Shown: positions 21,972 to 62,567 of the stretch, piece after piece
How positions within the stretch are numbered: position 1 is the first letter of the stretch
How the letters are laid out: every line of letters begins with the position of its first letter
Sequence record: PZ445451.1
Length of the DNA: 64,000 bases
From: a phage
Strand: one strand, 5' to 3'
Translations under genes and position numbers: made by a program
The notes under the pieces: generated by a model
Databases searched by the model: none
What the model saw: the letters and a program-made list of their open reading frames with translations, nothing else
Told to the model about the DNA's origin: nothing

Positions 21972-21977
21972 AAAGCA

Positions 21978-22036: not shown

Positions 22037-22059
22037 TCACTGAAAAAGAGATTAACATC

Positions 22060-22299: not shown

Positions 22300-22308
22300 T
22301 AAAAGCAG

Positions 22309-22368
22309 TTGACAACGTTTTTTAATCTGGTATAGTTTATCGCATAGGGCGGGAAATGGTTTCCCGCC
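22309..22368 (+). promoter_or_regulatory. sigma70-like promoter (TTGACA/TATAGT) plus conserved leader hairpin (GGGCGGGAAATGGTTTCCCGCC)
   Basis: Seen directly; identical hairpin to 19734 copy. Confidence 0.6.
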
Positions 22369-22390
22369 AAATCAAAGAAAGGTTATCATT

Positions 22391-22618
22391 ATGGCTATCG
22401 TTATTGTTCGCGTATCCGGCACGGTTGGAATCTCCCAGGTAGTAGCAGTTATCACCGAGAAGAAAGGGGATGATCTTCACTCCTCATTGAATAGCTGGGC
22501 GGTCGCTAACTTTGGGCAATGGTCGAGCGTTGAGTACATCGAATCCTACCAGGTGCCAACGATTAGCCTGACCGATCTCAACGTTGATCGTCTGTTATGC
22601 CTGGATCAATTAAACTAA
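22391..22618 (+). CDS. Hypothetical protein (75 aa)
   Basis: Track ORF after promoter-hairpin unit. Confidence 0.55.
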   Translation: MAIVIVRVSGTVGISQVVAVITEKKGDDLHSSLNSWAVANFGQWSSVEYIESYQVPTISLTDLNVDRLLCLDQLN

Positions 22619-22626
22619 AAATAATA

Positions 22627-22684
22627 TTGACAAGACAACTAAAATTAGTAAAATGTAATTCATAGGGCGGCAATAGTGCCGCCC
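22627..22684 (+). promoter_or_regulatory. sigma70-like promoter (TTGACA/TAAAAT) plus leader hairpin (GGGCGGCAATAGTGCCGCCC)
   Basis: Seen directly; perfect 8-bp stem. Confidence 0.6.
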
Positions 22685-22705
22685 CTAGTAAGAGAGATTA
22701 TCAAA

Positions 22706-22921
22706 ATGGCTAATATCCGCACCTTGTTAAAAAATGCAAAGCAAGTTTTATTTTCAGATGACGAGTATTTCAACAAAGACATTACAGGCGTGAAAAATTT
22801 AAAAGACGTGAAGGATGTTATCGGTATCCGTGGATCTTTACGTAAAGGTGACATATACGGTAACAAGGTGCAATATAAACTGTCAAAAGATTATGATTTT
22901 ACTTTGACAATTATTTCATAA
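22706..22921 (+). CDS. Hypothetical protein (71 aa)
   Basis: Track ORF; start moved to MANIRT (ATG 22706) because the track start lies inside the leader hairpin. Confidence 0.55.
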   Translation: MANIRTLLKNAKQVLFSDDEYFNKDITGVKNLKDVKDVIGIRGSLRKGDIYGNKVQYKLSKDYDFTLTIIS

Positions 22922-22927
22922 AACTAC

Positions 22928-22988
22928 TTGTAAACCTGGTAAAATAAAGTAAACTATATTCATCAAGGCGGTGGAATAGCCCACCGCC
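22928..22988 (+). promoter_or_regulatory. Weak promoter-like sequence plus leader hairpin variant (GGCGGTGGAATAGCCCACCGCC)
   Basis: Seen directly; stem arms co-vary relative to other copies. Confidence 0.5.
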
Positions 22989-23012
22989 TAACAAAGAGAA
23001 GAGGAAAACATC

Positions 23013-23183
23013 ATGATCACTTTCACTACCCGTGAAGCCGCTCGCAACGTTGCACGTAAAGTTAACGCCGCCAACCTGGGCGCTACGCTTAAAGCCCCGG
23101 TGAAAGATGAATCAGGAAAATGGATCTTTCCTGGTCTGCGTCACGCTGATAAGCTGGGAACATTAACGTTAAAAAATAAATAA
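23013..23183 (+). CDS. Small hypothetical protein (56 aa, MITFTTREAARNVARKVNAANLGATLKAP..)
   Basis: Manual ORF below size cut-off; AGAGAAGAGG SD after hairpin. Confidence 0.45.
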   Translation: MITFTTREAARNVARKVNAANLGATLKAPVKDESGKWIFPGLRHADKLGTLTLKNK

Positions 23184-23190
23184 TATCCGC

Positions 23191-23249
23191 TTGACAGTAG
23201 CATCGTTTATAAGTAAAGTAACAACAACGGCGGGAAATGGTTTCCCGCC
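23191..23249 (+). promoter_or_regulatory. sigma70-like promoter (TTGACA/TAAAGT) plus leader hairpin (GGCGGGAAATGGTTTCCCGCC)
   Basis: Seen directly upstream of gene 23270. Confidence 0.6.
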
Positions 23250-23269
23250 ATCAATAAAGAGATAAGATT

Positions 23270-23629
23270 ATGAAATCAGTAAAAGCAATTAAAACTTACA
23301 TTGTGTCGGCTATTTCTTTTGATGGTACTACAACCGAAAAAGAAAAAATCACCGAACTGATGCGCCGTTTTAACTCTGAATACTGGTATCAATCTAATCG
23401 TGATCGTTATAATAACAATATGGTACAAGCTGTTAAAAGCTGGTTACAAGGTTTACCGTCAGATATCAATATCGCTTTTAATTATAACGAGATCGATCAA
23501 TTATTAATTGAATGGAAGTACATAAAAGAAACAAGCAAAGAAACAACCGTTACCCGTGAGCGGGAAAATTATTGGTTATATATTGCAAGCATGATCGTAA
23601 CTTTGGCAAAATATCATAACGTAGCGTAA
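23270..23629 (+). CDS. Hypothetical protein (119 aa)
   Basis: Track ORF after promoter-hairpin unit. Confidence 0.55.
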   Translation: MKSVKAIKTYIVSAISFDGTTTEKEKITELMRRFNSEYWYQSNRDRYNNNMVQAVKSWLQGLPSDINIAFNYNEIDQLLIEWKYIKETSKETTVTRERENYWLYIASMIVTLAKYHNVA

Positions 23630-23643
23630 TCGAGAGGAAAAAC

Positions 23644-23781
23644 ATGAACGCATCACAGCAGATCGAAAAATTCAACCGCAACAAAGCGAGTAAAGATTGG
23701 AACGAAGAGATCACCAAGAAAGGCGACAAGCGGAACAAAACAAAAAGAGATCGCAGCAGCAAAAGATACTGGAACGAATAA
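23644..23781 (+). CDS. Small basic protein (45 aa)
   Basis: Manual ORF; GAGAGGAAAAAC-ATG SD; followed directly by terminator. Confidence 0.4.
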   Translation: MNASQQIEKFNRNKASKDWNEEITKKGDKRNKTKRDRSSKRYWNE

Positions 23782-23782
23782 C

Positions 23783-23809
23783 AAAAAAGGGCGCAATAAG
23801 CGCCCTTTT
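23783..23809 (+). terminator. Rho-independent terminator (GGGCGC-AATAA-GCGCCC-TTTT)
   Basis: Seen directly. Confidence 0.65.
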
Positions 23810-23899
23810 AGCTTATATAGAGGCTTGTTGCTTATAGGCAAGGGTAACGCCAGGATAAGCCTATAAACCACGTTAGACGGCTTTACAGGAGCTTTAAAA

Positions 23900-24082
23900 A
23901 TGAAATTAGAGGAAATAAGCAAGGCACTAGCCCAGGGGCAAAGGTTATGCGCCCGATATCGTGATCAATATGGCTTCATAACTAGCGGCGTGATCCTGGG
24001 GATGGAAGGCAATAAGATTTTTATTGACACGTTGAAAAACGTTGTATATAGTGACAATATAATCTCAATAAAACATATATGA
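23900..24082 (+). CDS. Hypothetical protein (60 aa)
   Basis: Track ORF; GGAG SD. Confidence 0.45.
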   Translation: MKLEEISKALAQGQRLCARYRDQYGFITSGVILGMEGNKIFIDTLKNVVYSDNIISIKHI

Positions 24083-24090
24083 GGCAAGAA

Positions 24091-24492
24091 ATGAAAAAAT
24101 TATTGATCGCTGGTTTACTCTCTTTTGGCATGGTTGGAACATCTAGCGCGGCGATATCCTCCACAGTAGCAGAATTAAGCGCCGTTGATGCAATGGAAAA
24201 CGTCATGATCATTAATAATGCGATCCCCGATGAAATCATGGAGGATTCACACATGATCGCTTATGGTGCTGTTACACAACTAACGGCAAAAATAGATAAA
24301 TCTATTGTTAATGGCTTAAATGAAGATGTACCATGTGAAATTATTACCAGTGTGCTCACTACTCAAAATTTTACGCCGTGGCTAAAAAGTATTCAAAAAG
24401 TACACAGTACAGCCGCAGATCGTAGCAATGAAAAACTAGTGTCAGCACTTGCAACGTATACCCTAGCAAAATGCACCGAAATAAAAGATTGA
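24091..24492 (+). CDS. Putative secreted protein (133 aa)
   Basis: Track ORF; start moved to MKKLLIAGLLSFGMVGTSSA (signal-peptide-like) with GAGG SD. Confidence 0.55.
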   Translation: MKKLLIAGLLSFGMVGTSSAAISSTVAELSAVDAMENVMIINNAIPDEIMEDSHMIAYGAVTQLTAKIDKSIVNGLNEDVPCEIITSVLTTQNFTPWLKSIQKVHSTAADRSNEKLVSALATYTLAKCTEIKD

Positions 24493-24517
24493 CAACATAG
24501 AAAGCACGTTATAAGAT
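24489..24517 (+). promoter_or_regulatory. sigma70-like promoter (TTGACA-N17-TAAGAT)
   Basis: Seen directly; -35 overlaps stop of upstream gene. Confidence 0.5.
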
Positions 24518-24539
24518 ACACACAACAAAGGAGAACTAC

Positions 24540-24842
24540 ATGAACGGCATAGCTAAAACGTTTTTTCTTTTTTCTGGTGTAAATGATCCATCAATAAAAG
24601 TCGATAGCGTAAAAGAAAACAATACTATCACCGCTAAATTGTTTCAAGATGAAACAAATAACGTGCTAATCATTAATCTTAAAGAAATAACAAAAGGTTA
24701 TTATACTATTGCTTACCATGCGATCTATAATGCTGGTACTAGTGAGGAAGTGCAAACAAGCAACAACGAAAGCGCGGCGCTACCTGGTGATCTGGTGCTG
24801 GGCGTTATCAGTTTAATTGTCAATGATTTTTTTAAGGAGTAA
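24540..24842 (+). CDS. Hypothetical protein (100 aa)
   Basis: Track ORF; AAAGGAG SD. Confidence 0.5.
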   Translation: MNGIAKTFFLFSGVNDPSIKVDSVKENNTITAKLFQDETNNVLIINLKEITKGYYTIAYHAIYNAGTSEEVQTSNNESAALPGDLVLGVISLIVNDFFKE

Positions 24843-25100
24843 AACCATGCCCTATTTACATTTATTTTTCGGTATCTTATTGACAGGATCTTTTTTCTTC
24901 TGTATGCTTGTTTCTATTGTAAACCACGTTTTAAAACATTAAGGAAACAGCATGAAAATTATTCCCGTACAGTATAGCGTAATAAATCCAGCATATGAGG
25001 AAGGAAGGAAAACAAGCATGGCTTTATGTTGTATTGCTACTATAGCCATGTTATTATACACTGTGTTTTAATAGGTTTTATAGTTGTACGCTTTAAAGGC

Positions 25101-25153
25101 TTGACAATTTTTTGTTATGCTTTAAAATATATCTTGAAAACGGCAAAGGCCGC
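25101..25153 (+). promoter_or_regulatory. sigma70-like promoter (TTGACA/TAAAAT) plus short leader hairpin (CGGCAAAGGCCG)
   Basis: Seen directly upstream of gene 25172. Confidence 0.5.
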
Positions 25154-25171
25154 AAACAAAAGGGTAAAATT

Positions 25172-25495
25172 ATGAAATCTGTGATCGGTGTTTATTTGGA
25201 TAATTCTGATTTTTTCTATCATCGCGCTCGTTTCCTTGATGCTATTGATATGATAGAATCAGGCTTTAAAGAATACCGCCTTGCACATGATGACCTGGAA
25301 GCATTACAGGGCAATAGTGTTTTTACATTGCAAGCGAAAGCACTATGTAAAAGCCGGATCGACATTGCGAGCAAAAAGATAGAACGCGGCATGTCCTGGT
25401 TGCGCACCGCAGAAATCAACATGGGGCAATGGTACGGCAAAAACTTAGAAAATAAACATACCTTTGTCAATGTAGAAAATATTGAAGATTATTGA
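25172..25495 (+). CDS. Hypothetical protein (107 aa)
   Basis: Track ORF; start moved to MKSVIGVY downstream of the promoter. Confidence 0.55.
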   Translation: MKSVIGVYLDNSDFFYHRARFLDAIDMIESGFKEYRLAHDDLEALQGNSVFTLQAKALCKSRIDIASKKIERGMSWLRTAEINMGQWYGKNLENKHTFVNVENIEDY

Positions 25496-25558
25496 TTGAC
25501 AGCACATCTAACGAGTAGTATATTGTATCTCATAGAGCGGGGAAATGGTTTCCCCGCC
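25496..25558 (+). promoter_or_regulatory. sigma70-like promoter (TTGACA-N17-TATATT) plus leader hairpin (GCGGGGAAATGGTTTCCCCGC)
   Basis: Seen directly; stem lengthened by one compensated G-C pair. Confidence 0.6.
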
Positions 25559-25577
25559 TTAAAAGAAGAGATAAGCT

Positions 25578-25862
25578 ATGAAGATCACAAAAGCACTTTC
25601 CAACTATGCAGCACGTCGCGGATTATGCTTATCCGTTGAAAACTTAGGGAAAGAAGATTTTTTGTGTTTTTGGGAGCTTGAAAATGAAAGTGAATGGTTG
25701 TTCTCTTATTCTATCTGCGAAGATCAAAACGGTTGTTTGTTAACCTGGCGCGGTAATATCTATCTACCGGAAGAAATCAAAGAAGAATTGCCAGGCACGA
25801 TCATGACTGAGAAACAGCTTAAGGAAGTGATTAATTTTGTAGGGCAAAACATTAAAAAATAA
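25578..25862 (+). CDS. Hypothetical protein (94 aa)
   Basis: Track ORF after promoter-hairpin unit. Confidence 0.55.
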   Translation: MKITKALSNYAARRGLCLSVENLGKEDFLCFWELENESEWLFSYSICEDQNGCLLTWRGNIYLPEEIKEELPGTIMTEKQLKEVINFVGQNIKK

Positions 25863-25863
25863 T

Positions 25864-25922
25864 TTGACACTAGGCAAACAACGTAGTAAAGTTTATCACA
25901 TAGGGCGGCAATAGTGCCGCTC
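25864..25922 (+). promoter_or_regulatory. sigma70-like promoter (TTGACA-N17-TAAAGT) plus leader hairpin (GGGCGGCAATAGTGCCGCTC)
   Basis: Seen directly; same hairpin variant as 19379. Confidence 0.6.
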
Positions 25923-25943
25923 ATAACAGAAGAGAAACAAATC

Positions 25944-26114
25944 ATGATCCCGACTATGTTTTATGTATCGCGCAAAGGTCACAATATTTTTTGGTCTGAA
26001 GATTTAAATGAAGCCATGACGTTTGCCCGTGATCGTGTTGCTATCGGTGGCGTTAACATTACTGTAACCGATGAAAACGGCATTGAATACTATAACGGCG
26101 ACGATGAAGAGTAA
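25944..26114 (+). CDS. Hypothetical protein (56 aa)
   Basis: Track ORF; start moved to MIPTMFYV because the track start lies in the hairpin. Confidence 0.5.
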   Translation: MIPTMFYVSRKGHNIFWSEDLNEAMTFARDRVAIGGVNITVTDENGIEYYNGDDEE

Positions 26115-26121
26115 TTAATAA

Positions 26122-26142
26122 GGCGGGGGAGTATTCCCCGCC
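26122..26142 (+). promoter_or_regulatory. Leader-type hairpin (GGCGGGGGAGTATTCCCCGCC) without an upstream promoter
   Basis: Seen directly between genes 25944 and 26162. Confidence 0.5.
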
Positions 26143-26161
26143 GTCAATAAAGAGGTAAATC

Positions 26162-26431
26162 ATGAAAATATCTTTGGACGTTGCAATCAAGGCCATCGAA
26201 TCCGGTTACACCCTGGTAAAAGATGATAAGGCTAAAATAGTGCATCATGTTAACAAGGAAACAGGCGAAAGCATGATCACATATAAAGCCGCCTACTTTC
26301 TCCAATCAGTAGCAGATCCGCGCGTACAACGCCAGGTTACAGCGGCTATTGCTAAAAAATTATGTGCTTTACAGGGCACAAGTTTTAACGAGATCGCCCC
26401 GTGTTTTGACTGGTCGAGCTTGAAAAAATAG
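26162..26431 (+). CDS. Hypothetical protein (89 aa)
   Basis: Track ORF; AAAGAGG SD after hairpin. Confidence 0.55.
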   Translation: MKISLDVAIKAIESGYTLVKDDKAKIVHHVNKETGESMITYKAAYFLQSVADPRVQRQVTAAIAKKLCALQGTSFNEIAPCFDWSSLKK

Positions 26432-26432
26432 T

Positions 26433-26494
26433 TTGACAATATGCTGTTATCTGGTAAAGTGTACGACATAGGGCGAGGCAATAAGGCAACGCCC
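26433..26494 (+). promoter_or_regulatory. sigma70-like promoter (TTGACA/TAAAGT) plus divergent leader hairpin (GGGCGAGGCAATAAGGCAACGCCC)
   Basis: Seen directly. Confidence 0.5.
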
Positions 26495-26513
26495 ATTAAT
26501 GAGGGGTAGAATC

Positions 26514-26618
26514 ATGTTAGAGAAAATTTTCACGGTTGTAATAGTGGGCCTGGCGTTATCGGTTGGATTGGTTGCAACTATGGCTAACATGATCCTATCT
26601 TCCCACGGTATTGGATAA
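26514..26618 (+). CDS. Small hydrophobic peptide (34 aa, MLEKIFTVVIVGLALSVGLVATMANMILSSHGIG)
   Basis: Manual ORF; GAGGGG SD; first ORF after the promoter-hairpin unit. Confidence 0.3.
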   Translation: MLEKIFTVVIVGLALSVGLVATMANMILSSHGIG

Positions 26619-26628
26619 GGTGAATCAA

Positions 26629-26844
26629 ATGATCACGAATAAGACAGGTAAAACAGAATTTTTACGCAGCTTGCAAATAGGTAAACCTGAGATCTGGCAT
26701 TGCACTAAATCCGCGCATAATGAAATGAAAGATTTTACCGCTACTTTACAACGTGTTAAAATATCTATCACACAGAAAAAAGCCTTGTTAGTAGTAGAAA
26801 ACGAGATCCCGCAAACCATTATTATTGTCGAGCGTACAGCATGA
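26629..26844 (+). CDS. Hypothetical protein (71 aa)
   Basis: Track ORF; start moved to MITNKTGK (AAGGTGA SD). Confidence 0.5.
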   Translation: MITNKTGKTEFLRSLQIGKPEIWHCTKSAHNEMKDFTATLQRVKISITQKKALLVVENEIPQTIIIVERTA

Positions 26845-27227
26845 AAACTGAAATCATTAACGAAATGATCAACGGCTATAAAGAAGCCTTTATTTTTGCC
26901 GAACCAGCGACGGATCACAATGGGGAATATATTGAGAATCTAGACGATTATGATTTTTCTCCTAGCGCCCTGAAACGTATTACCAGCGATGTGACCGCCT
27001 TTTGTAGTGCCAATGTTGCCGCTATCTCTGAGGCAATGAGCGACGGCGCTACAGCAAACCAGATCGGGAATGATTTACATTTTACCCGTAACGGTCACGG
27101 CGTAGGTTTTTGGGATCGCCCTGAAATATACACTACTAACACCGCCAACCGTTTAACTGATGCAGCTAAATTAATGCCATTGGTGCATGCTTACATTGGT
27201 GAAGATAATTTGATTTATATTGACTAA
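26841..27227 (+). CDS. Hypothetical protein (128 aa)
   Basis: Track ORF; ATGA overlap with upstream gene. Confidence 0.55.
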   Translation: MKTEIINEMINGYKEAFIFAEPATDHNGEYIENLDDYDFSPSALKRITSDVTAFCSANVAAISEAMSDGATANQIGNDLHFTRNGHGVGFWDRPEIYTTNTANRLTDAAKLMPLVHAYIGEDNLIYID

Positions 27228-27232
27228 AAGTG

Positions 27233-27291
27233 TTGACACCGATCCCCAATATGTTATTATTTACCACGTAAGCGGGAAATGGTTTCCCGCC
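27233..27291 (+). promoter_or_regulatory. sigma70-like promoter (TTGACA/TATTAT) plus leader hairpin (GCGGGAAATGGTTTCCCGC)
   Basis: Seen directly. Confidence 0.6.
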
Positions 27292-41847: not shown

Positions 41848-41926
41848 ATGACTTTACTAGAGAGTATCGTAGTGTTAATCATCTTTATCATTGTTGTCAT
41901 AGGATATTTTACAGAAGACTAAAATA

Positions 41927-41960
41927 AAGCCCCTAGAATCGCTTCTAGGGGCTTTTGTTT
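41927..41960 (+). terminator. Rho-independent terminator (AGCCCCTAGAA-TCGC-TTCTAGGGGCT-TTTGTTTG)
   Basis: Seen directly; end of plus-strand block. Confidence 0.65.
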
Positions 41961-42022: not shown

Positions 42023-42280
42023 TTAGGAATGCATAAAATCTTCTTCAGGGCAGGTTGAGAGATAAGAGATGCACGTTGGGACAACAACAACATTGTCTTT
42101 AAGGTTTTCAACCAAGCCTTTTGTAATCCCAGCCACTGCCCCGTTAATATCTGCTTGACGGATACCAAAGCCTTGTTGTGCGGATAGATAACAAAATCCC
42201 TCACCTTTCTGTTGATTGTTATTGAAGTAATAAACGTAGTGCATCATAAAATGGTCTTTAACGATTTGTTCTGTGGTCAT
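42023..42280 (-). CDS. Hypothetical protein (85 aa)
   Basis: Track ORF. Confidence 0.5.
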   Translation of the reverse strand: MTTEQIVKDHFMMHYVYYFNNNQQKGEGFCYLSAQQGFGIRQADINGAVAGITKGLVENLKDNVVVVPTCISYLSTCPEEDFMHS

Positions 42281-42286: not shown

Positions 42287-42312
42287 CTCCTATAAGAAAA
42301 GGGGCTTTCGCC
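42287..42312 (-). terminator. Rho-independent terminator (GGGGGCGAAAGCCCC-TTTTCTT on minus strand)
   Basis: Seen directly downstream of Sir2-like gene. Confidence 0.6.
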
Positions 42313-42324
42313 CCCTTGGTTAAG

Positions 42325-43137
42325 TTATTTAGTCAAATGATCTTCTATCATTTTTATGAAAGCAGGATTGCTAAAAGCATCTGCGGCCTTTTCTCGATAA
42401 ACAAAAACTCCTCTATCTTCGTAAAGAAGAGTTTCTTCGTAATTAATTCCTGGGTTAACAACAATCATTTTTGTACCCATACTAAGTGCAGGGAATAATT
42501 CCCAATTAAAATTGATAACTTGGTTTGAACATCCTACTACAACAACCAAATCTTGCATGGTCAAAGTATCAAACAAGTGAGCCATATCTGCATACAAAGG
42601 TGCAGCCTCACCAAAAAATACAACATTAGGCTTCACCCAGTTGTAATCATCTATGTTTATACTGTTGTAACCAATATCTACCAGTGTTTTGTAGTCCCCA
42701 GGATGCATACGGTAAACTACTTCAGGAAGATATCCGTGCACGTGGATAACAGAATCCCTGTCTACACCTGCTCGCTCTAGTAGATCATCAACGTTTGTTG
42801 TCAAGTTTACTACTTGGTTAGGATATTCCTTAAACCACTTTGCTATTTGAATATGTGCAGCATTAGGTTGTACATCTTTAAGCTCAACACGTCTTTTGTT
42901 ATAAAATTCGTGTGTTTTGGCATACAAATCCATACCGTTTTCGTCTACACCACCAACCACTGGAAGATCTGGTGATGTTCTCACACGATAACCTGCTTGG
43001 AAAGCTCCAATATCGCAGATCTCTTCTAAATCCCATTCTTCCCATAGGGCACGACCACTATCTGTGTCTGTTCGGAATGTTCGAATCCCACTGTCTGCAC
43101 TTAAACCAGCTCCACTAACAAAAATTACTCTTCGCAT
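42325..43137 (-). CDS. Sir2-family (sirtuin-like) NAD-dependent deacylase/ADP-ribosyltransferase, zinc-less
   Basis: Track ORF; VIFVSGAGLSADSGIRTFR (GAGIS..SGIP.FR), TTNVDDLLERAG (QN.D.LH..AG), IHVHG (catalytic His), KPNVVFFGE, VVVGCS; no CxxC zinc ribbon between HG and FGE. Confidence 0.75.
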   Translation of the reverse strand: MRRVIFVSGAGLSADSGIRTFRTDTDSGRALWEEWDLEEICDIGAFQAGYRVRTSPDLPVVGGVDENGMDLYAKTHEFYNKRRVELKDVQPNAAHIQIAKWFKEYPNQVVNLTTNVDDLLERAGVDRDSVIHVHGYLPEVVYRMHPGDYKTLVDIGYNSINIDDYNWVKPNVVFFGEAAPLYADMAHLFDTLTMQDLVVVVGCSNQVINFNWELFPALSMGTKMIVVNPGINYEETLLYEDRGVFVYREKAADAFSNPAFIKMIEDHLTK

Positions 43138-43694
43138 TCAATATCCTCTTCGTAATCATCATCCCAAGAAGATGCGTCGTAACGCTCTTCCTCTTCGAAA
43201 TCCCAGTTAATTTCTACCCCAAAATCTAAAAACAATTTAACAATGTTTTCTGTAGAGTAGTATTTATCATAAGCATTAGCTAGTTCCCAATACTTATCAC
43301 TCAATTTTTTATAAGTAGGATCATTATAGTCATAATCTACTTTATAACTATAGTCATACATCTCTTGTTCAGCTTTAAGCATAGCTTCTGGTGTAAGAAG
43401 ATTAGGGGACGGACGATTTCTTTCTTTTAACTTAGAAGCGATCCAGTTTGCAACATTCGCCACTTCACCATCTCGATTATCACCTAAACAACTTGCATAA
43501 TCTCCATCTTCGTAAGTGCCTAAATCCCCATTTACTTCATGTACAATAGATGAATACGATCCACACGTTTCACAATCTGAAAAAGTGTCTACTGTTGTAA
43601 TATCAATAGATAAAACTGGTAAAGCCATAGCTTCTTTCACACAAGCCTCCTCATATAATAACATATCATCAAAACCCATATATCCTCCACACAA
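43125..43694 (-). CDS. Hypothetical acidic protein (189 aa)
   Basis: Track ORF. Confidence 0.5.
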   Translation of the reverse strand: MCGGYMGFDDMLLYEEACVKEAMALPVLSIDITTVDTFSDCETCGSYSSIVHEVNGDLGTYEDGDYASCLGDNRDGEVANVANWIASKLKERNRPSPNLLTPEAMLKAEQEMYDYSYKVDYDYNDPTYKKLSDKYWELANAYDKYYSTENIVKLFLDFGVEINWDFEEEERYDASSWDDDYEEDIECEE

Positions 43695-43733
43695 ATAAAG
43701 CCCCTGATTGGGGCTTTGGTTAAGTTTTACGGA

Positions 43734-44342
43734 TTATACCAGACTTTTAAGGTACTTGTCAAGGGCTTCTTGATCACCTTGACAAACATAGCAACGGAAG
43801 TCTTGAGCAGAAGGTTCTTTGTCCTCGTCCCAATCCCAATAAACCGTACCTTTATAACGTGAACCTGGGAACTCGAAATATGCTGTATGAGTAATATGAT
43901 GTGGGCCACCCCAAAACTGTGTAAAAGTAAATTGAGGATACGCTGCTTTAACTGTATTTTCAAACCAAGTTTTACGATCTAATGCTTCGTTTATAAAATA
44001 AGCATGGCGTTCCATTTCATCCCAGTTTTTCCAAACGCATTTTTCATCCAGAGAAAAAACAAAATCTTCACTGTTGAATTCATCTGTATCTTCCAAAGTA
44101 TCATAATCATGTGCACTAGGTATCCACCATCCAGCTTCTAATAGTGCTTTCACGGGTACAAAACCTTTTTCAGCATATTGATCAAATTCTTTTACTCTAC
44201 GTACAGTGCAGTATTCATCTTCACCACCAATGTCCAGTAGACAAGCGCCTCTGCGTCTTGCTGCAAGACCATGTGTATCAAAAACTACAACGCTACCTTC
44301 ACCATCTTCACGATCTACTTGATATGCAACTTTTTGAGTCAT
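43734..44342 (-). CDS. Hypothetical protein (202 aa)
   Basis: Track ORF. Confidence 0.55.
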   Translation of the reverse strand: MTQKVAYQVDREDGEGSVVVFDTHGLAARRRGACLLDIGGEDEYCTVRRVKEFDQYAEKGFVPVKALLEAGWWIPSAHDYDTLEDTDEFNSEDFVFSLDEKCVWKNWDEMERHAYFINEALDRKTWFENTVKAAYPQFTFTQFWGGPHHITHTAYFEFPGSRYKGTVYWDWDEDKEPSAQDFRCYVCQGDQEALDKYLKSLV

Positions 44343-46211: not shown

Positions 46212-46732
46212 ACAACCTCCTCGTAATTGTTATTGTGTTTTACTGTCTCAACATACAATAAAGATTCCATCTGTAATACATTACCAGAAATAATAAACCC
46301 ATAAGCCATTTCAGATGTGTCTATATCATATGCCCCGTCTTCCGGTTTAGCAAAGTGTAAAACTATTTCATCTGGGTTTTCTTCATCCCATATTTTAGAA
46401 ATTTTTCGAACCAGAATATTAGCTAAAATAGTTGACATTCGGGATAAAGCTGTATCCTCGTATCTTTTAAAACCTAACCAATAGAGGTTAAGAATTTCTA
46501 CTTCTTCTTGTGTTAAGTTTTTGTCTAAAGTAATCAGATCTGTAGGATACATCGTTTTTGTTGAACCTACTATTACAAAACCTGGAGTGTTATGAAAAAC
46601 AATCTTAACTTTATCACGTATGAAGTTTAAACCTTGTGCCTCAACTATATATTGTATTGTAGGTACAATATCGTTTGTTACATCAATAAAGCTATCTTTA
46701 ATGACGCTTATATTATTTCTGGACAAGACCAT
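46208..46732 (-). CDS. Hypothetical protein (174 aa)
   Basis: Track ORF. Confidence 0.55.
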   Translation of the reverse strand: MVLSRNNISVIKDSFIDVTNDIVPTIQYIVEAQGLNFIRDKVKIVFHNTPGFVIVGSTKTMYPTDLITLDKNLTQEEVEILNLYWLGFKRYEDTALSRMSTILANILVRKISKIWDEENPDEIVLHFAKPEDGAYDIDTSEMAYGFIISGNVLQMESLLYVETVKHNNNYEEVV

Positions 46733-47291
46733 TCTCCTCTAAAATAGGTTTAATAAATTCGAAGATTTGTTTTTTACTTTTACCTCGAATATTAAAACAA
46801 GGAACATTAAACTTTTTAGCCAACATCCAAGCTGTTCTTGTACCACCTAAAGGATCTCCATTTTTATCTGTATTTGCACAAGCTAAAAGAAAACAAGATG
46901 GTTTTGGATTCTCAAGATCTCTGCCAAGAACTTGGTGGATATTTCTTTGATGTAATTTTTTAGCACCTTGAGATAATCTGTCCCAAGCTGGATGCAATTC
47001 TTTTGCATATTGCAAGGTTAGAGCATAGTTTACACTATCTGGTCTGTCAAGAACAATAACCTCTCCTTCTATCTCATTACCTTTAAACGAAGGCCAAGGA
47101 ATGTATATTTCTTTCTTTGTATTGTTTCCACTATCATATACCCCGCATTCAAATGCGGAATCTGCACCTTCTGCTTTACCAGATCGCAAAATGAACCATG
47201 TAGATAACCATTTTGCAACAGCTACCATAGTGTCCCATTCTTCGTCTGTAATATCTCTGCTACCAACACCTGTGTAGAATAAATCGCTCAT
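46713..47291 (-). CDS. DprA/Smf-like (SLOG superfamily) Rossmann-fold protein
   Basis: Track ORF; start moved to MSDLFYTGVGSRD (AAGGAG SD). YTGVGSRDIT..LRSGKAEGADSAFECG resembles DprA core (GSR..Y...SG.A.GID.A.H). Confidence 0.55.
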   Translation of the reverse strand: MSDLFYTGVGSRDITDEEWDTMVAVAKWLSTWFILRSGKAEGADSAFECGVYDSGNNTKKEIYIPWPSFKGNEIEGEVIVLDRPDSVNYALTLQYAKELHPAWDRLSQGAKKLHQRNIHQVLGRDLENPKPSCFLLACANTDKNGDPLGGTRTAWMLAKKFNVPCFNIRGKSKKQIFEFIKPILEENGLVQK

Positions 47292-47301: not shown

Positions 47302-47622
47302 TTAACAAGTAATATTGGGAATAATACTGGGAGTAACAATTGGAGTAATAGGGTACGTAAACCAAGGGCTTCCAATTTCCCAAGGACTATAAGGTGTACG
47401 AGGATCAAATGGAGGCGTTACTTGAGGCTTTTTCCAAATCTCCGCTAGTTGTTTCTTCCATTTATCCCTTGCTGTATCGTTATCTTCATCCAACTGTTCG
47501 TCATTATCTTTTATTTCTGATTTTGGAAATAAAAGCTCTTTGACTAACTCAACGTCTTCCGTTTCAATAGTAGTTTCTTTCGTAATATTCCCTACCGTCT
47601 CTTTAATTGTGACTTTATACAT
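47302..47622 (-). CDS. Hypothetical protein (106 aa)
   Basis: Track ORF. Confidence 0.5.
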   Translation of the reverse strand: MYKVTIKETVGNITKETTIETEDVELVKELLFPKSEIKDNDEQLDEDNDTARDKWKKQLAEIWKKPQVTPPFDPRTPYSPWEIGSPWFTYPITPIVTPSIIPNITC

Positions 47623-48368
47623 TAGTCCTCCTCTAAAGTAGAATAAAATTGTAACGTATTTGAATCATCAAAATATGCAAAGGTTAAATTACCATTGAAG
47701 CAAGATCCTGTATCCATATATACCCTATTACTGCTAATTACAGGTTTAGGAACATAAGAATGCCCGTGAAATACATAATCTACTCCTGAAACTCTAGGAA
47801 GAAGAATCCCTTCAAGGGCGCAATCTATCATATCACGATCCCACATTAAAGATTCTGTGAATCGAGATACTTGCTCTTTATTCATATTCAAACAAAATGG
47901 CAAAACTTCTGTCACTGGTAAATGTTCCAAAACTGAAGGATACCCACCGTGAATAAAGCCTAGTTTCATATCACGATAATTGACAACAAGTACAACAGGT
48001 AAATCTTCTAGCATCAAAGCAAGAGCAGTTGCACCCTCTTCTCCACACTCGTCTAGAACTGTATGGCCTCCGTTCTGAAACCAACATTCGTAATATCGTC
48101 TATCACCTTCTAGCAACCCTTTAATCATCATATCTTCATGATTTCCACGAATACCATAACGATTTAGCTTTCTGGTGAATTCAACAACACAACGAAAATT
48201 CTGCTTGCCGCGATCTGTAAGATCTCCTAAAGATACAACAACATCTTGATCTCGGATACCTAAAGTATTAACACCTTTCTGGTACAAATCAAAGCAACCA
48301 TGTAAATCACCAATAATAAACAGGTCTTGATCATCTTTTACACTAATTTCTTGATATACTAGCATCAA
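47622..48368 (-). CDS. Ser/Thr protein phosphatase (PPP/metallophosphoesterase family, lambda-PPase-like)
   Basis: Track ORF; GDLHG, GDLTDRG, GNHE motifs in canonical order. Confidence 0.8.
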   Translation of the reverse strand: MMLVYQEISVKDDQDLFIIGDLHGCFDLYQKGVNTLGIRDQDVVVSLGDLTDRGKQNFRCVVEFTRKLNRYGIRGNHEDMMIKGLLEGDRRYYECWFQNGGHTVLDECGEEGATALALMLEDLPVVLVVNYRDMKLGFIHGGYPSVLEHLPVTEVLPFCLNMNKEQVSRFTESLMWDRDMIDCALEGILLPRVSGVDYVFHGHSYVPKPVISSNRVYMDTGSCFNGNLTFAYFDDSNTLQFYSTLEED

Positions 48369-48701: not shown

Positions 48702-49274
48702 TTAATGTGTTAATGAAACTGCATAACTAAACACAGGTTCAGATATTACATCGGCTACAGTAATAAAAACGTCCTCGTCTTGCGTTGTTTCTACACGACA
48801 TACAGTTACACCATTTACCACGAATTCAACGCAATGTGGAATATCTTCACAAACGAAGGTAGTGTAAGTAACACCCAAAGCATCATACAAAGATTTAACA
48901 GTGTTTGCAAGTGCCGCAGTTTCTTCTTTTTCTGAGACAATGAATGCTGTAACAATAAGATTGTTTGCATAGTTTAGACTGTCCTCTATAGCCAATGATT
49001 TACAAGGTAGTAATGCAAAATATTTACCTGGTTTAATCAGACCTGCTTCCCATTGATTCAAAATTGCCTGGGATGGTTTAGTAATATAAAATAGATTTTC
49101 ACTTGGGTTATCAATATTACTTCTGGCGATACAACGTGAAGGATTATTAATATCAAATACATGATCAAAATCTACACAAACAGGTAAACTGAAAGGTGTA
49201 AATTTTTTACCTAATAATCCTATGGCTGATAATATGTTTGCTGTGCTTATCTTCCCGTTAAAAGCTAAACGCAT
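48702..49274 (-). CDS. Hypothetical protein (190 aa)
   Basis: Track ORF. Confidence 0.55.
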   Translation of the reverse strand: MRLAFNGKISTANILSAIGLLGKKFTPFSLPVCVDFDHVFDINNPSRCIARSNIDNPSENLFYITKPSQAILNQWEAGLIKPGKYFALLPCKSLAIEDSLNYANNLIVTAFIVSEKEETAALANTVKSLYDALGVTYTTFVCEDIPHCVEFVVNGVTVCRVETTQDEDVFITVADVISEPVFSYAVSLTH

Positions 49275-58857: not shown

Positions 58858-59942
58858 TAGAAGTCTAACTCCTCGTCATCACTTACATCTTTATTTGCTG
58901 AATTCAGTTTGTAAGCTGTAATTTGGATCTCCTGTGCTGCTGCTTGAATTTGATCTGGATTTAACCAAACATCCATCCAAGGCAGTGGACTTTTCTTCGG
59001 TGCACGGAATTTGTGTTTCATTTTCAGTCTGCGATAGATAGGCGCGGCATTGAAGTAAACCCAAAGTTTGAACAACTCTGCGTTACCACCAACGATAACC
59101 CTTCCTTCACTAAACAGATAGTCACACCAATCTTCCTCTTGTCCAACTACCGTATCAAGAATTTCTGTCAGAACGTCGATATTATCTTCGTATACTTTTC
59201 TCCAGACAGGATCTTTCAGCAGTGCATCAATAATAGCATAATCCATTTTAACGTGCAATAGTTCATCCAACATAATTTTTTGAATAAGTTTAGCTGCACC
59301 TACAAACAGTTGCTGCTCTGCTAAGGCAAATGTTGCAGCAAAAGATGATATGAATTGAATGCCTTCCAGACCGATAAGTGCAATCATTCCTTTCAGAATC
59401 AGTAGACGAAGGTTATCATCCTTCTCAATCAGACCTAGAGCATATTTATGTCCTGCCTCTGCCAGATCACTCATTATCTCTTCAACTATACCCATCCTCT
59501 GGAAGATTCTTTCGTTCTCCATAATCTGATCGATAACTTCATTTGGATTAGGGATACACTGACGAATAATTTCAGAATATGTCAAAGCGTGTAAAACTTC
59601 CATTTCTGATTGCTTCATCATCATTGCACATGCTTCGTTGTTGCTTAAAAATGGTGCAAACAAAGTGATGATTGATTTAGCAAGTGAATCATTTTCCCAC
59701 TGGAAAGATAGGTTTTTGATCATAACATCATAGTTGCTTTTAGAACAAGCTACGAAATCTTTTCGTGTCTGATCTAAGTTTACTTCGTTTTCATCCCAAT
59801 CTTGCTGTTTTTGTAGTTTGTACAGGCGATGCATTTCTGGGTATGTTACGTTAATAGAATCAAAAATACCTAACTGTTCGCCCAAAAATACAGGGTAGAA
59901 ACCTTCTTTGTAAGTGTCGTTGTATAAATTAATTGCTGCCAT
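58857..59942 (-). CDS. nrdB: Ribonucleoside-diphosphate reductase small subunit (class Ia NrdB)
   Basis: Track ORF; 361 aa, ferritin-like di-iron ligand helices (..EVLHALTYSEII.., ..LEGIQFISSFAATFAL..), acidic C-terminal tail DDEELDF; continuous ORF with no intron. Confidence 0.9.
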   Translation of the reverse strand: MAAINLYNDTYKEGFYPVFLGEQLGIFDSINVTYPEMHRLYKLQKQQDWDENEVNLDQTRKDFVACSKSNYDVMIKNLSFQWENDSLAKSIITLFAPFLSNNEACAMMMKQSEMEVLHALTYSEIIRQCIPNPNEVIDQIMENERIFQRMGIVEEIMSDLAEAGHKYALGLIEKDDNLRLLILKGMIALIGLEGIQFISSFAATFALAEQQLFVGAAKLIQKIMLDELLHVKMDYAIIDALLKDPVWRKVYEDNIDVLTEILDTVVGQEEDWCDYLFSEGRVIVGGNAELFKLWVYFNAAPIYRRLKMKHKFRAPKKSPLPWMDVWLNPDQIQAAAQEIQITAYKLNSANKDVSDDEELDF

Positions 59943-60264
59943 TTAAATCCTCCACAATATCACACATTGCTTTTATTGTATCAATGTGTTCTCTCTCCAT
60001 ACCATTCTCTATGTAAGCCTTCTCTAATGCGTTCCATACACTCTTTGTGAGTAGTACAGTAACCTCTCCCTCATATCTTGCCCTGGTTAAAGCATACCAG
60101 GTAGCTTCGGGATCATTGGAAGCCCATATTTCAACACTGGAAAATTGAAAACCTGCAATATGATGACAACACCAATCGAATGTAAAATCTTTACTATCTA
60201 CCAGTGTATAATTGCCCCAACGCCTTTGTGGTGTTGCCCCAGGTAATACAACTAATGTAGGCAT
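59929..60264 (-). CDS. Hypothetical protein (111 aa)
   Basis: Track ORF; start moved to MPTLVVLPG (AAGGAGG SD) so that the GC hairpin after nrdA is not coding. Confidence 0.5.
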   Translation of the reverse strand: MPTLVVLPGATPQRRWGNYTLVDSKDFTFDWCCHHIAGFQFSSVEIWASNDPEATWYALTRARYEGEVTVLLTKSVWNALEKAYIENGMEREHIDTIKAMCDIVEDLNGSN

Positions 60265-60305
60265 ATTCCTCCTTAAGAAATGGGGGACAAAGCCCCCTAG
60301 CTTCA

Positions 60306-62567
60306 TTACATCTTACAAGACTCACAACCGGATTCTTCATCCTCTTGAGCGAGTGAGGTTGCTGATTTTGTTCGACTATTTAGATAGTACAAAGATTTAC
60401 CACCAAGTTTTGCAAACTGAAGGATATATTGCATTTCTGATTTAATGGATAAACGACCACCTTCCATCTTAGAATAGTCAATCCACTTGTCACATGATGC
60501 ACCTTGATCTAAGAATTTAGTCAACAGTCCATATGCTTCAGCCATATCTTTATCTGGCGTATCCCAAGCCGATTGGTAAATATCTTTTAGTTTATCGTAA
60601 TCTGGCACAATAAACAAGACATTACCTTTTTGGCTTTGTTTATAAACTATAGTATCACGTACAGGATACACAGAGTTAGTCGTATTACTTACAAGACTAC
60701 TGGACTCATTCGGAGCAATAGCTGCTAATACACTATTTCGGATACCACCTTGTGCAATTATATCTTGTCGTAAACCTTCCCAATCCATTTTAAGTTTAAA
60801 ATTGCCAATATCGTCTACAGCTTTAGCGTAGGTATCAATAGGCAACCATCCTTCAGGCCATTTGGTTTTATGCATCCATTCTGCATTACCTTTCTCTTTT
60901 GCCAAACGAAGAGAAGCTCTTGCTAACCAGTAATAATGTATTTCTGCTAATTCGTGAATTAGTTTTTTGCCGTAAGGATCTGAATAAGTAACAAAATTAC
61001 TTGCCAGATAATGTGCAAGGTTTGTAATACCTACACCGATAGACCTACGTGCTTTAGCAGTGATTTCGTTATGTTTAAACGGATACTGCATTGTTTCAAT
61101 CACATTATCAATAGTTAGAACGGTATAATATGCAACATCTTCATATTCTTCTGGTGTAACACGACCAGCTACAATAGAAGACAGGAAGCATAATGCCAAT
61201 TCTTGGTCTTCTGTATTCTCACCTGTGAAAAGATCAGTCATATTGTGAAATGCTTTCGTAGGTAAGAAAATTTCTTGGCACAAGTTTGACTGGTAAATAA
61301 CATCCTTAAACGGAGTATGCTTATTAACATTATCCGCAAAGAACATATAAATACGTCCTGTTTCTGCTCTTTGTGTAATAATTTCTGCCAGAAGATCTCG
61401 TGCTTTTACAAACTTCTTCTTAATTCGTTTGCGACTAACTTTTTCATATACTTCTTCAAACTCTTCCTCGCTTTTATAAAGCGCCTCATAGAGTTCTGGT
61501 GCTTCGTCATAACTGACTAGCATCCAATCTTTACCTTTTGCTGCACGGCGCAGGAAAGCATTGTTTACTACAATAGAGTAATCAAGTTTATCTACTCGTT
61601 TTTCACTAACAGTAGTTGGATTTTTCAAACGTACCAGATCTTCAAAATCAGGTTCCAATATTGTAAACGTTACTGTTGCACTTCCACCACGGCTTGCTTG
61701 TTTTGATGCTCCAACACTTGTTTCCATCCATTTCAGATATGGTAAAAGACCACCGTGAACTATACGGTTGTTCTTAACACCTTGTCCTGTAGCACGGGTT
61801 TGGAGGTTAACACCAATACCTGCATTATTCAATGTATATTCATGAGCAAGATAGTTAGCAATTGCTAAAGATTCTGCTGTATCATCTGCTCTAAACAGAC
61901 AACAAGAAGCACTACCTTTAATCTTAGTACGCAAAGTTGTTAAATAAGGTGATGGTAAATTAATCTTAAGATCACTTACGTAGGTATATAGACGTTTAAT
62001 GTCTTCTACTCTGCGATCTTTTGGTTGAATTTCCATTACCTTCATTGCTACACCAATGAATAAAAACTGTGGTGATTCAAAAACCACATCATTGATCGCA
62101 TCTTTCACAAGATACTTATCAACCATCTGGCGCAGTACGGAATAACCATAAGTTAGGTTTTTATCATGATTGATAATTTTACCAATCTCAATAATTTCTT
62201 CTTCTGTATAATCCATTTTCCCCCAATAGCCTTTACTTACAGACATATTGTAGAAATCCAGGAGGGAGGGGATATTGTGATATCCCCCATGAGCCTGTTT
62301 ATAGATCATACCAAGAAGTAACCGACCTGCCATATCACTATATGCCTGATCTTTCTTATCAATACATGCTGCTATCATAGCTTTATGTAAATCACGAGTA
62401 GGCACACCGTCGTAACAACGTTTAACAGCTTCGAGTTCAATTTCAGACCAATTTAATTTACCAGCAGCAAACTCTGACCATTTACGAAGTTTTTCTGGAT
62501 TAAATTCTTCTTTCTTGCCGTTTGTTTTTGTTACATAACGGATAGATTTGCTTAGATACTGAGTCAC
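60306..62567 (-). CDS. nrdA: Ribonucleoside-diphosphate reductase large subunit (class Ia NrdA)
   Basis: Track ORF; 753 aa, N-terminal ATP-cone-like segment, C-terminal Cys pair ..SGCESCKM, gene order nrdA-nrdB. Confidence 0.9.
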   Translation of the reverse strand: MTQYLSKSIRYVTKTNGKKEEFNPEKLRKWSEFAAGKLNWSEIELEAVKRCYDGVPTRDLHKAMIAACIDKKDQAYSDMAGRLLLGMIYKQAHGGYHNIPSLLDFYNMSVSKGYWGKMDYTEEEIIEIGKIINHDKNLTYGYSVLRQMVDKYLVKDAINDVVFESPQFLFIGVAMKVMEIQPKDRRVEDIKRLYTYVSDLKINLPSPYLTTLRTKIKGSASCCLFRADDTAESLAIANYLAHEYTLNNAGIGVNLQTRATGQGVKNNRIVHGGLLPYLKWMETSVGASKQASRGGSATVTFTILEPDFEDLVRLKNPTTVSEKRVDKLDYSIVVNNAFLRRAAKGKDWMLVSYDEAPELYEALYKSEEEFEEVYEKVSRKRIKKKFVKARDLLAEIITQRAETGRIYMFFADNVNKHTPFKDVIYQSNLCQEIFLPTKAFHNMTDLFTGENTEDQELALCFLSSIVAGRVTPEEYEDVAYYTVLTIDNVIETMQYPFKHNEITAKARRSIGVGITNLAHYLASNFVTYSDPYGKKLIHELAEIHYYWLARASLRLAKEKGNAEWMHKTKWPEGWLPIDTYAKAVDDIGNFKLKMDWEGLRQDIIAQGGIRNSVLAAIAPNESSSLVSNTTNSVYPVRDTIVYKQSQKGNVLFIVPDYDKLKDIYQSAWDTPDKDMAEAYGLLTKFLDQGASCDKWIDYSKMEGGRLSIKSEMQYILQFAKLGGKSLYYLNSRTKSATSLAQEDEESGCESCKM

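Follow-up and report, generated by a model that had tools for sequence, protein, structure and literature searches.

A zinc-less sirtuin of Escherichia phage PaulScherrer is a candidate lysine deacylase

A 64,000-nucleotide stretch of phage DNA (sequence record PZ445451.1; hereafter, the window) encodes a sirtuin, bas60_0185, on its minus strand at positions 42325..43137 including the stop codon. The protein is almost certainly a catalytically competent member of a phage clade of sirtuins without zinc ligands. As for its substrate, acyl-lysine is the candidate that we place first from sequence and a modelled structure, and the protein may be a lysine deacylase that depends on nicotinamide adenine dinucleotide (NAD+), a reading that we hold tentatively. 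The open reading frame (ORF), and with it the window, was 100% identical in sequence to Escherichia phage PaulScherrer (BASEL Bas60, MZ501100.1; Stephanstirmvirinae, Justusliebigvirus, phi92-like), whose host is E. coli; a position in the window equals the position in the MZ501100.1 record minus 64,675. PaulScherrer is virulent, in agreement with a first-pass annotation that had described a zinc-less Sir2-like protein in a lytic phage. A total of 91 additional phage records carry sequences with at least 80% nucleotide identity to the sirtuin ORF (813 nt). In PaulScherrer the gene was deposited as "sirtuin family protein", and the names used in sister phages are "Sir2 NAD-dependent deacetylase", "cobB" and "Sir2-like transferase".

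Sequence, fold and zinc module

The gene runs from an ATG start codon at 43137 to a stop codon at 42327..42325 and encodes 270 amino acids. The protein matched the Pfam SIR2 family PF02146 (E=2.8e-22, 80 bits, gathering cut-off 24 bits) and, over its full length (residues 1-269), PHROG 2162 "Sir2 (NAD-dependent deacetylase)" (E=7e-104); its best sequence match in the PDB was E. coli CobB (1s5p, E=6e-18). These profile scores put the assignment to the sirtuin family far beyond chance. bas60_0185 is a single-domain protein that stands alone without a sensor or oligomerisation domain, and it is acidic, with an isoelectric point (pI) of 4.8 (40 Asp+Glu versus 25 Lys+Arg; clade median pI 5.0).

All four sirtuin motifs named in the first-pass annotation were present. 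The NAD-binding loop GAGLSADSGIRTFR (residues 9-22, 43072..43113; minus strand, as for all sirtuin features given here) meets the pattern GAGxSxxSGIxxFR, and its residues G9, A10, G11, S13, S16, G17, F21 and R22 are at least 90% conserved in phage and cellular relatives alike. NVDDLLERAG was found at residues 115-124, HVHG at 132-135 and VVFFGE at 172-177. TTNVDD (42784..42801) derives from the TQN(I/V)D motif: the Gln has become Thr114, while Asn115 and Asp117 are kept and are likewise common to both groups of relatives at 90% or more. The codon of the catalytic His134 lies at 42736..42738; the residue aligned to CobB His147 and was His in all 376 of 376 relatives. VVFFGE (42607..42624) matches the substrate-binding FGE loop, where F175, A179, P180 and Y182 are shared by the phage clade and its cellular relatives, again at no less than 90%.

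The sequence Tyr79-Asn-Lys-Arg82 (42892..42903) holds the class-III Tyr-x-x-Arg pair, which aligned with CobB Y92/R95 and is equivalent to SIRT5 Y102/R105. In CobB and SIRT5 this pair binds an anionic group (it recognises acidic acyl groups). In the acyl pocket of CobB, I131, V187 and H147 are the aligned counterparts of V116, V172 and H134. All the residues required for NAD+ binding and nicotinamide cleavage are kept, namely the GAGxS...FR loop, Asn115, Asp117, His134, the GxS at residues 202-204 and Asn228.

An AlphaFold2 model built on a 64-sequence alignment reached a mean pLDDT (predicted local distance difference test score) of 91 and a predicted template modelling (pTM) score of 0.88, and showed a Rossmann large domain with a small domain. 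Its top Foldseek match was CobB 1s5p (template modelling score 0.84 when normalised to CobB, E=6e-17). The top 50 matches were all canonical deacylases, comprising CobB, Archaeoglobus Sir2-Af1/Af2, SIRT5, SIRT2, Hst2 and Thermotoga Sir2, and none of the ThsA, DSR2, SIR2-HerA, SPARSA or SIR2_2 structures was within these 50. A comparison with the PADLOC defence models gave no significant match, the best being PDC-S65 (E=0.0066 over 37 residues).

The only cysteines of bas60_0185 are C41 and C203, and there is none at residues 135-171, between His134 and VVFFGE, so the four zinc ligands are absent. Our verdict is that the protein is zinc-less as judged from its sequence and that its ribbon module is remodelled, not missing. 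Residues 136-169 (YLPEVVYRMHPGDYKTLVDIGYNSINIDDYNWVK, 42631..42732) form a zinc-less remnant of the module that keeps the (D)IGY and W-x-KPN motifs, at a length of 34 residues against 33-40 in relatives with four cysteines. Within the canonical sirtuin fold predicted by AlphaFold2, the module is a beta-hairpin with strands at 135-143 and 151-154 and a pLDDT of about 95. A MAFFT alignment with the four-Cys relatives placed the first CxxC at Tyr142/His145 and the second at a gap after Asp164; in a HMMER alignment, the CobB zinc cysteines C155, C174 and C176/177 fell on Tyr142, Ile160 and Ile162/Asp163. The first-pass annotation had called the zinc ribbon absent and proposed structure prediction as a check. 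It was right about the missing cysteine ligands; given the module length, the predicted strands and the alignments, we replace "absent" with ligands lost and module kept.

The closest system in both sequence and structure is E. coli CobB (1S5P, 6RXJ), a class III NAD+-dependent lysine deacetylase, desuccinylase and lipoamidase, which has the same Rossmann and small-domain fold, catalytic His, Tyr-x-x-Arg pair and FGE loop and a module of similar length. However, the two proteins are only 26-28% identical, bas60_0185 is far more acidic, TQNID and GTS of CobB are TTNVD and GCS in the phage protein, and the latter carries an insertion of 23-27 residues at about positions 47-73. We assign bas60_0185 on its sequence to the CobB-like/class-III lineage, but not as a CobB equivalog. 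The nearest cellular relatives (36-40% identity) are small four-Cys sirtuins of Helicobacter, Malacoplasma and Verrucomicrobiota, named "SIR2 family NAD-dependent protein deacylase". Like the phage protein, they have IGY within the zinc module as well as KPN-VVFFGE, and they match it in overall length, but they retain CxxC...CxxC and TQN(I/V)D. Canonical-type sirtuins predicted in silico to lack the zinc cysteines, and termed "unusual", are also on record from the acetic acid bacteria Gluconobacter, Kozakia and Novacetimonas (PMC11820453); unlike bas60_0185, these are cellular.

Signature and distribution of the phage clade

Searched exhaustively with HMMER, 1.84 billion cluster representatives gave 2,052 relatives, 23 of them at E<=1e-30. 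The near relatives are zinc-less, whereas the farther ones carry CxxC...IGY...CxxC, and a search started from one four-Cys relative led to ordinary bacterial sirtuins (Helicobacter, Malacoplasma, Verrucomicrobiota). The signature was counted in 376 aligned relatives, as raw counts that ignore phylogeny. Thr114 together with at most one module Cys was found in 152 sequences, and Gln114 together with at least three in 189. Mixed types (Thr with at least three Cys, or Gln with at most one) numbered 17, and the other 18 had a different residue at 114 or exactly two Cys. The same split between Thr/zinc-less and Gln/four-Cys proteins was seen in 38 dereplicated viral loci. Loss of zinc accompanies the change from Gln to Thr in the TQNxD motif.

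The Tyr-x-x-Arg pair is conserved in both groups; among the 160 sequences with Thr114, Tyr79 was present in 159 and Arg82 in 152. Only about seven positions (T114, F46, N111, V201, F210, F255 and R3) are specific to the zinc-less clade, so the chemistry and the binding mode look largely unchanged. Across 64 homologues of 54-91% identity, 45 alignment columns were invariant, the catalytic residues included.

By tblastn, a homologue of the sirtuin was detected in 983 of 50,697 phage records (about 2%). By organism name, 376 of the carriers are Escherichia phages, 289 Salmonella phages, 131 Klebsiella phages and 50 Vibrio phages, and the lineages include phi92-like, phAPEC8-like, Vequintavirinae, Mydovirus-like, T5-like and jumbo phages. 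The proteins of Vequintavirinae, phAPEC8-type and T5-like phages show 47-68% identity to bas60_0185. The T5 orthologue (51.8% identical) lies at T5 positions 56447-57265 and is annotated in all four T5 records, as Sir2-like protein, deacetylase or cobB. In two records named "Campylobacter phage A110a/A12a" (MG065689.1, MG065666.1), one sirtuin shows 98.9% identity to the E. coli phi92-like protein and the other 46.9% (rV5-like); these host labels look doubtful.

A scan of one genome per species (185,579 bacterial and archaeal species), using family-specific patterns that are strict and that distant members may escape, detected a single relative. This protein (6001..6546 of a 43-kb contig in a Bacilli metagenome-assembled genome, JBOFGC010000083.1) has 41% identity, TTNVDD and a single module Cys, and its contig may be a phage binned into the Bacilli genome. 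With one relative among 185,579 species, the zinc-less clade is essentially phage-specific. A cellular origin of the clade was set aside, as the scan with these strict patterns, which could miss distant members, gave this one contig.

The family has been described before. Iyer, Burroughs, Anantharaman and Aravind (Viruses 2022) placed the majority of viral sirtuins in "a distinct clade" (PMC9503650). bas60_0185 is a member of that clade (PHROG 2162; T5 "Sir2-like protein/cobB", rV5, Mydo, SP15), but the PaulScherrer gene lies outside the RNA-repair neighbourhood, with a promoter of its own and a partner restricted to its lineage. GenBank, PHROGs and the literature already contain the gene, its family and a hypothesis for its function, so we deal here with an annotated gene of a described family and not with a discovery; the first-pass annotation had missed both the existing annotation and the published clade with its RNA-repair prediction (PMC9503650). 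That paper is silent on zinc loss and on the change from Gln to Thr, its sole text match to "zinc" being inside "zincin". The clade-wide loss of zinc ligands with the module kept, coupled to Gln-to-Thr, appears not to have been stated previously and refines the known clade.

Candidate activities

Homology, fold, pocket residues and the small number of clade-specific changes rank deacylation first, and the long-term selection apparent from 983 carrier records and invariant catalytic residues was also counted in its favour. In the mechanism that we propose, host RNA polymerase would express the sirtuin early, the protein would bind NAD+, and an oxygen nucleophile near Tyr79/Arg82 would attack C1' of the nicotinamide ribose. 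NAD+ would be cleaved and ADP-ribose passed to the oxygen nucleophile, for which the likeliest candidate is an acyl-lysine's carbonyl oxygen, the lysine belonging to a protein of the host or of the phage. His134 would then activate the ribose 2'-OH, and the intermediate would be resolved. The resulting zinc-independent deacylase may favour acidic acyl groups (succinyl, malonyl). Spent NAD+ could be replaced by the NAD+ salvage of the phage (Nampt and phosphoribosyl pyrophosphate (PRPP) synthetase), and O-acyl-ADP-ribose could be cleared by its macrodomain protein. In MZ501100.1, the region 138358..145839 holds a cluster of cREC, phosphoesterase, RNA ligase and polynucleotide kinase (PNK) genes and then PRPP synthetase and Nampt, and a macrodomain protein (bas60_0070), a phosphoribosyltransferase and a HAD-like protein are encoded in a row at 59888..62103, both regions being outside the window. 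Together, the genes for Nampt, PRPP synthetase, the macrodomain protein, the phosphoribosyltransferase and the HAD-like protein make up a full NAD/ADP-ribose toolkit.

Several observations weigh against deacylation. The Gln of TQNxD, which contacts the nicotinamide ribose, is replaced by Thr114. All NCBIfam CobB-type models matched, but far below their curated cut-offs (NF001753, 104.6 versus 243; NF040867, 84.3 versus 320; NF001755, 81.8 versus 318). The zinc ligands are lost, and the zinc module is reportedly required for deacetylation by canonical sirtuins, while the SIR2_2 defence sirtuins do without it (PMC12700824). In other phages, the cREC, RNA ligase, kinase, 2H and Nudix neighbours suggest that the substrate is a phosphate or RNA. 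T4 and lambda-vir are restricted by the CobB of the host (PMC4271551), so simple mimicry of CobB is not obviously useful to a phage. Finally, the literature searched yielded no assay, biochemical or genetic, of a sirtuin from this clade.

The neighbours are the basis of a published prediction. Three types of clade neighbourhood were described (PMC9503650): 2H, Nudix, cREC and PIN genes in jumbo phages; T4-like RNA ligase, cREC, kinase, MazG and calcineurin-like phosphoesterase in rV5 and Mydo; and a HAD phosphatase in SP15 (T5-like). From these, removal of RNA 2'-phosphates by the phage sirtuin, in the manner of KptA/Tpt1, was predicted (PMC9503650). The published neighbourhoods were confirmed in the genomes that we examined. 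Vequintavirus AlexBoehm (Bas56) encodes PNK, phosphoesterase, RNA ligase (PF09511), cREC (PF20274, E=4e-14) and the sirtuin, with a DNA ligase farther on; in Seunavirus SSE121, the series is metallophosphoesterase, RNA ligase, cREC (E=2e-14), kinase, sirtuin and DNA ligase, with a MazG-like gene farther on. The RNA ligase in the Vequintavirinae neighbourhood is RNA_lig_T4_1. A 360-kb jumbo contig with a different backbone carries 2H/Acb1-like, sirtuin, hypothetical, Nudix, cREC (E=8e-25) and PIN-PhoH genes. In the T5-like Salmonella phage bombadil, gp062 (6120..6635 of the extracted locus), which lies 300 nt downstream of the sirtuin, is of HAD type with the motif FLDIDGVLN. Its name, "Sir2 (NAD-dependent deacetylase)", was rejected, as it has the HAD motif and no similarity to bas60_0185; the mis-annotation has probably spread among T5-like phages.

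Neighbours were counted within +/-8 kb of the sirtuin in 25 dereplicated zinc-less groups (80% identity). Metallophosphoesterase was found in nine groups, DNA ligase, Nampt and DprA/SLOG-like genes in eight each, MazG in seven, kinase and RNA ligase in six each and PRPP synthetase in five. A cREC neighbour occurred in 6 of the 25 (clusters of four and two groups), and a calcineurin-like phosphoesterase of the type encoded in the window was near the sirtuin in seven.

The strongest alternative to deacylation, which we nevertheless regard as unlikely, follows the published prediction. The sirtuin would move ADP-ribose from NAD+ to an RNA phosphate, either a 2'-phosphate, internal or terminal, that remains once a cleaved tRNA has been healed, or possibly a 5'-phosphate. 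Tyr79 and Arg82 would hold the phosphate, the ribose 2''-OH activated by His134 would attack the phosphorus, and the products would be RNA with a 2'-OH and ADP-ribose 1'',2''-cyclic phosphate, the latter then degraded by cREC/2H, Nudix or macrodomain proteins. Besides the prediction itself (PMC9503650), this is supported by the adjacency of cREC, which recurs in two unrelated genome architectures (Vequintavirinae and the jumbo contig), by the confirmed RNA-processing neighbours (metallophosphoesterase, kinase, RNA ligase, cREC, and the HAD-type gene in a T5-like phage) and by the cyclic-phosphodiesterase neighbours, which suit an ADP-ribose cyclic phosphate product better than O-acyl-ADP-ribose. 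The Tyr-x-x-Arg pair is an anion binder, and PaulScherrer holds the full cREC/phosphoesterase/RNA ligase/PNK cluster. Its cREC is bas60_0247 (hidden Markov model E=4e-35), deposited as "hypothetical protein"; bas60_0245 was rejected as the cREC gene because it had no Pfam match.

On the other hand, this cluster is outside the window, 31-34 kb from the PaulScherrer sirtuin, a gene served by a separate promoter and paired with an unrelated partner, and synteny among related phages inflates the neighbour counts. In most T5-like carriers neither Rnl1 nor cREC was detected: within the sensitivity of tblastn, Salmonella phages (mostly T5-like) gave 289 records with a sirtuin versus 14 with the RNA ligase and 14 with cREC. 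T4-type healing by Pnkp and Rnl1 leaves no 2'-phosphate. There are few clade-specific residues, and a pI of 4.8 is unusual for an RNA-binding enzyme, which we take as weak evidence. The literature searched held no experiment on this activity. The likeness to Tpt1/KptA, which uses NAD+ and whose ADP-ribosyl-phosphate intermediate is resolved through the ribose 2''-OH (PMC9503650), is hypothetical, and Tpt1/KptA has an ART-superfamily fold unrelated to the sirtuin fold of bas60_0185.

Stated for the clade, the proposal is that the zinc-less Thr-type phage sirtuins (bas60_0185, T5, rV5, jumbo) are not deacylases but the first sirtuins to act on phosphates of nucleic acids or nucleotides, as convergent analogues of Tpt1/KptA, and we find this doubtful. 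It is similarly doubtful that, at the expense of NAD+, they take off or cap 2'- or 5'-phosphates on RNA, releasing ADP-ribose cyclic phosphate and undoing attacks by the host on tRNA or mRNA. Were it so, the loss of the zinc ribbon would reflect that the substrate had changed from peptide to RNA.

The first-pass annotation had suggested a deacylase or an ADP-ribosyltransferase, and both seem reasonable for a protein whose predicted NAD pocket and catalytic His are intact. We consider the second quite improbable. It would be a mono-ADP-ribosyltransferase that modifies a host protein or small molecule for takeover, as SirTM or SIRT4/6 do. The probable early expression from a host-type promoter resembles takeover enzymes of the T4 Alt/Mod type. 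The altered TQNxD could favour transfer over deacylation, and the macrodomain gene in the genome could reverse or tidy the modification. Sirtuin chemistry permits such transfer, and SirTM (class M), a canonical sirtuin fold repurposed for chemistry other than deacylation, provides a precedent (PMC4518038). SirTM performs robust protein ADP-ribosylation and keeps its zinc domain, and SpySirTM has Gln137 in place of the catalytic His, together with Arg192 (PMC4518038). The clade of bas60_0185 shows the reverse, with His134 kept and the zinc ligands gone, and a SirTM-type enzyme was ruled out on these grounds. In addition, the gene for SirTM adjoins macrodomain and GcvH-L genes, whereas no macrodomain, GcvH-L or LplA gene occurs in the neighbourhood of the sirtuin in the window, the sole macrodomain gene, bas60_0070, being about 46 kb off. 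The conserved acyl-pocket residues also argue against transfer.

The first-pass annotation had further linked the protein to the NAD+-depleting Sir2 effectors of bacterial defence. An NAD+ glycohydrolase, or a manipulator of NAD-based immunity that drains or alters the pool of NAD+ and ADP-ribose or degrades or mimics signals of the Thoeris or DSR type, now looks very unlikely. In many defence systems a Sir2 domain serves as the NADase effector (PMC9503650; PMC12700824), and in 8 of the 25 groups a gene of the DprA/SLOG-like type lies near the sirtuin, SLOG domains being predicted to bind ADP-ribose-derived signals or to process ADP-ribose derivatives (PMC9503650). The defence Sir2 NADases (ThsA, DSR1/DSR2, SIR2-HerA and SPARSA, with SIR2_2) and vertebrate FAM118 share the Sir2 Rossmann core, the use of NAD+ and the lack of a zinc module (PMC12700824). 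However, they form a separate branch in which the entire module is gone and sensor or oligomerisation domains are present, whereas bas60_0185 keeps a ligand-less module. It is not fused to SLOG, HerA, pAgo or a long C-terminal domain, and its operon partner bas60_0186 matches none of these. The null result with PADLOC, the structural matches to deacylases only and the lack of a sensor domain ruled out a defence-type Sir2 NADase and speak against the proposed link. A plain hydrolase would not need a conserved acyl/anion pocket. The phage also invests in NAD+ salvage, the opposite of depletion, and with Nampt and PRPP synthetase in the genome, NAD use fits better than NAD depletion.

That the gene is an inactive or decaying remnant retained by hitch-hiking is hardly credible: the gene is fragmentary in at least one T5-like phage, DT57C (only residues 193-228 matched), suggesting dispensability, but the 45 invariant columns among 64 homologues, the fully conserved catalytic His, the confident model and an own consensus promoter all speak for function.

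Expression unit, neighbouring genes and implications

Upstream of the sirtuin, a sigma-70 promoter with the sequence TTGACA-18-TGgTATAAT (43733..43762, minus strand) has a perfect 12/12 match and an extended -10 TG, and overlaps the 3' end of bas60_0187. Matches of 12/12 numbered three in the whole window, one of them on the minus strand, against about 0.1 expected by chance (an estimate from base composition). The promoter is probably active early and read by host RNA polymerase. A GC-rich hairpin AAAGCCCC-aatca-GGGGCTTT (43697..43717, minus strand) separates the promoter from the Shine-Dalgarno sequence GGAGG of bas60_0186, and is either a weak terminator of the upstream genes or a hairpin of the 5' untranslated region. 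On the plus strand, 21266..27260 contains nine near-consensus sigma-70 promoters (11-12/12; perfect at 21266 and 21978) and is probably a region of small early genes that depends on the host polymerase.

The gene bas60_0186 (43125..43679, minus strand) encodes an acidic orphan protein of 184 amino acids and overlaps the start of the sirtuin gene with its final 13 nt, an arrangement suggestive of translational coupling. The two genes probably form a two-gene unit transcribed early by the host polymerase. bas60_0186 belongs to PHROG 9509, of unknown function, and has invariant cysteines at C13, C36-x-x-C39 and C64 and a very acidic C-terminal tail. It had no significant Pfam or NCBIfam match and no PDB profile match, and its AlphaFold2 model, of moderate quality (pLDDT 80.5), had no Foldseek match in the PDB better than E=0.24. 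Without a family or fold match, nothing supports the name under which it was deposited, "putative aminoacyl-tRNA synthetase". Homologues were found in five clusters only, all in Stephanstirmvirinae-type phages; with so few homologues, a moderate model and no fold match, the protein was a dead end as an informative partner. Its four invariant Cys could form a zinc site. The speculative idea that this site is supplied in trans to the sirtuin cannot hold for the whole clade.

bas60_0186 had no similarity to the other gene deposited as an aminoacyl-tRNA synthetase, bas60_0197 (48702..49274, minus strand; PHROG 4806). For this gene, too, the name looks unsupported, there being no significant Pfam or NCBIfam match; the PHROG 4806 gene recurs near the sirtuin in 7 of the 25 phage groups.

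A terminator-like hairpin AAGGGG-gcgaaag-CCCCTT with a T-rich tail (42299..42317, minus strand) lies 8 nt past the sirtuin stop codon. The last gene of the leftward block, bas60_0184 (42023..42280, minus strand; 85 amino acids, PHROG 15991), has an unknown function. Leftward and rightward transcription converge at a bidirectional terminator hairpin (41926..41955) with a perfect 13-bp stem and T-runs on both strands. Also upstream of the sirtuin unit are genes for a DprA/SLOG-like protein (46713..47291, minus strand; PHROG 768), a calcineurin-like phosphoesterase (47622..48365, minus strand; Pfam E=5e-13), about 4.5 kb from the sirtuin, and a Dcm methyltransferase; the first two lie within 3.6-5 kb of the sirtuin. 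Of the RNA-end and cyclic-phosphate processing genes typical of the clade, the phosphoesterase is the only one in this vicinity. Farther along the window, the small ORF at 59929..60264 (minus strand), flanked by the two genes of the class I ribonucleotide reductase, corresponds to Bas60_220 (Ksap2), which has been shown experimentally to trigger the Klebsiella immune sensor Avs2 (PMC11564622).

About 2% of sequenced phage genomes carry a sirtuin of this kind, including T5, several BASEL phages and many candidate therapeutic phages of E. coli, Salmonella and Klebsiella. NAD+ is a central battleground between phages and bacteria, and the sirtuin spends it in genomes that also rebuild it. The question of phage sirtuin function would be easy to address in T5 and BASEL phages with standard assays. 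If activity on RNA phosphates were true, sirtuins would gain a new substrate class and phage RNA repair a new step. If instead the protein is a deacylase, phages would edit the acyl-proteome of the host early in infection, and a canonical sirtuin would work without zinc.

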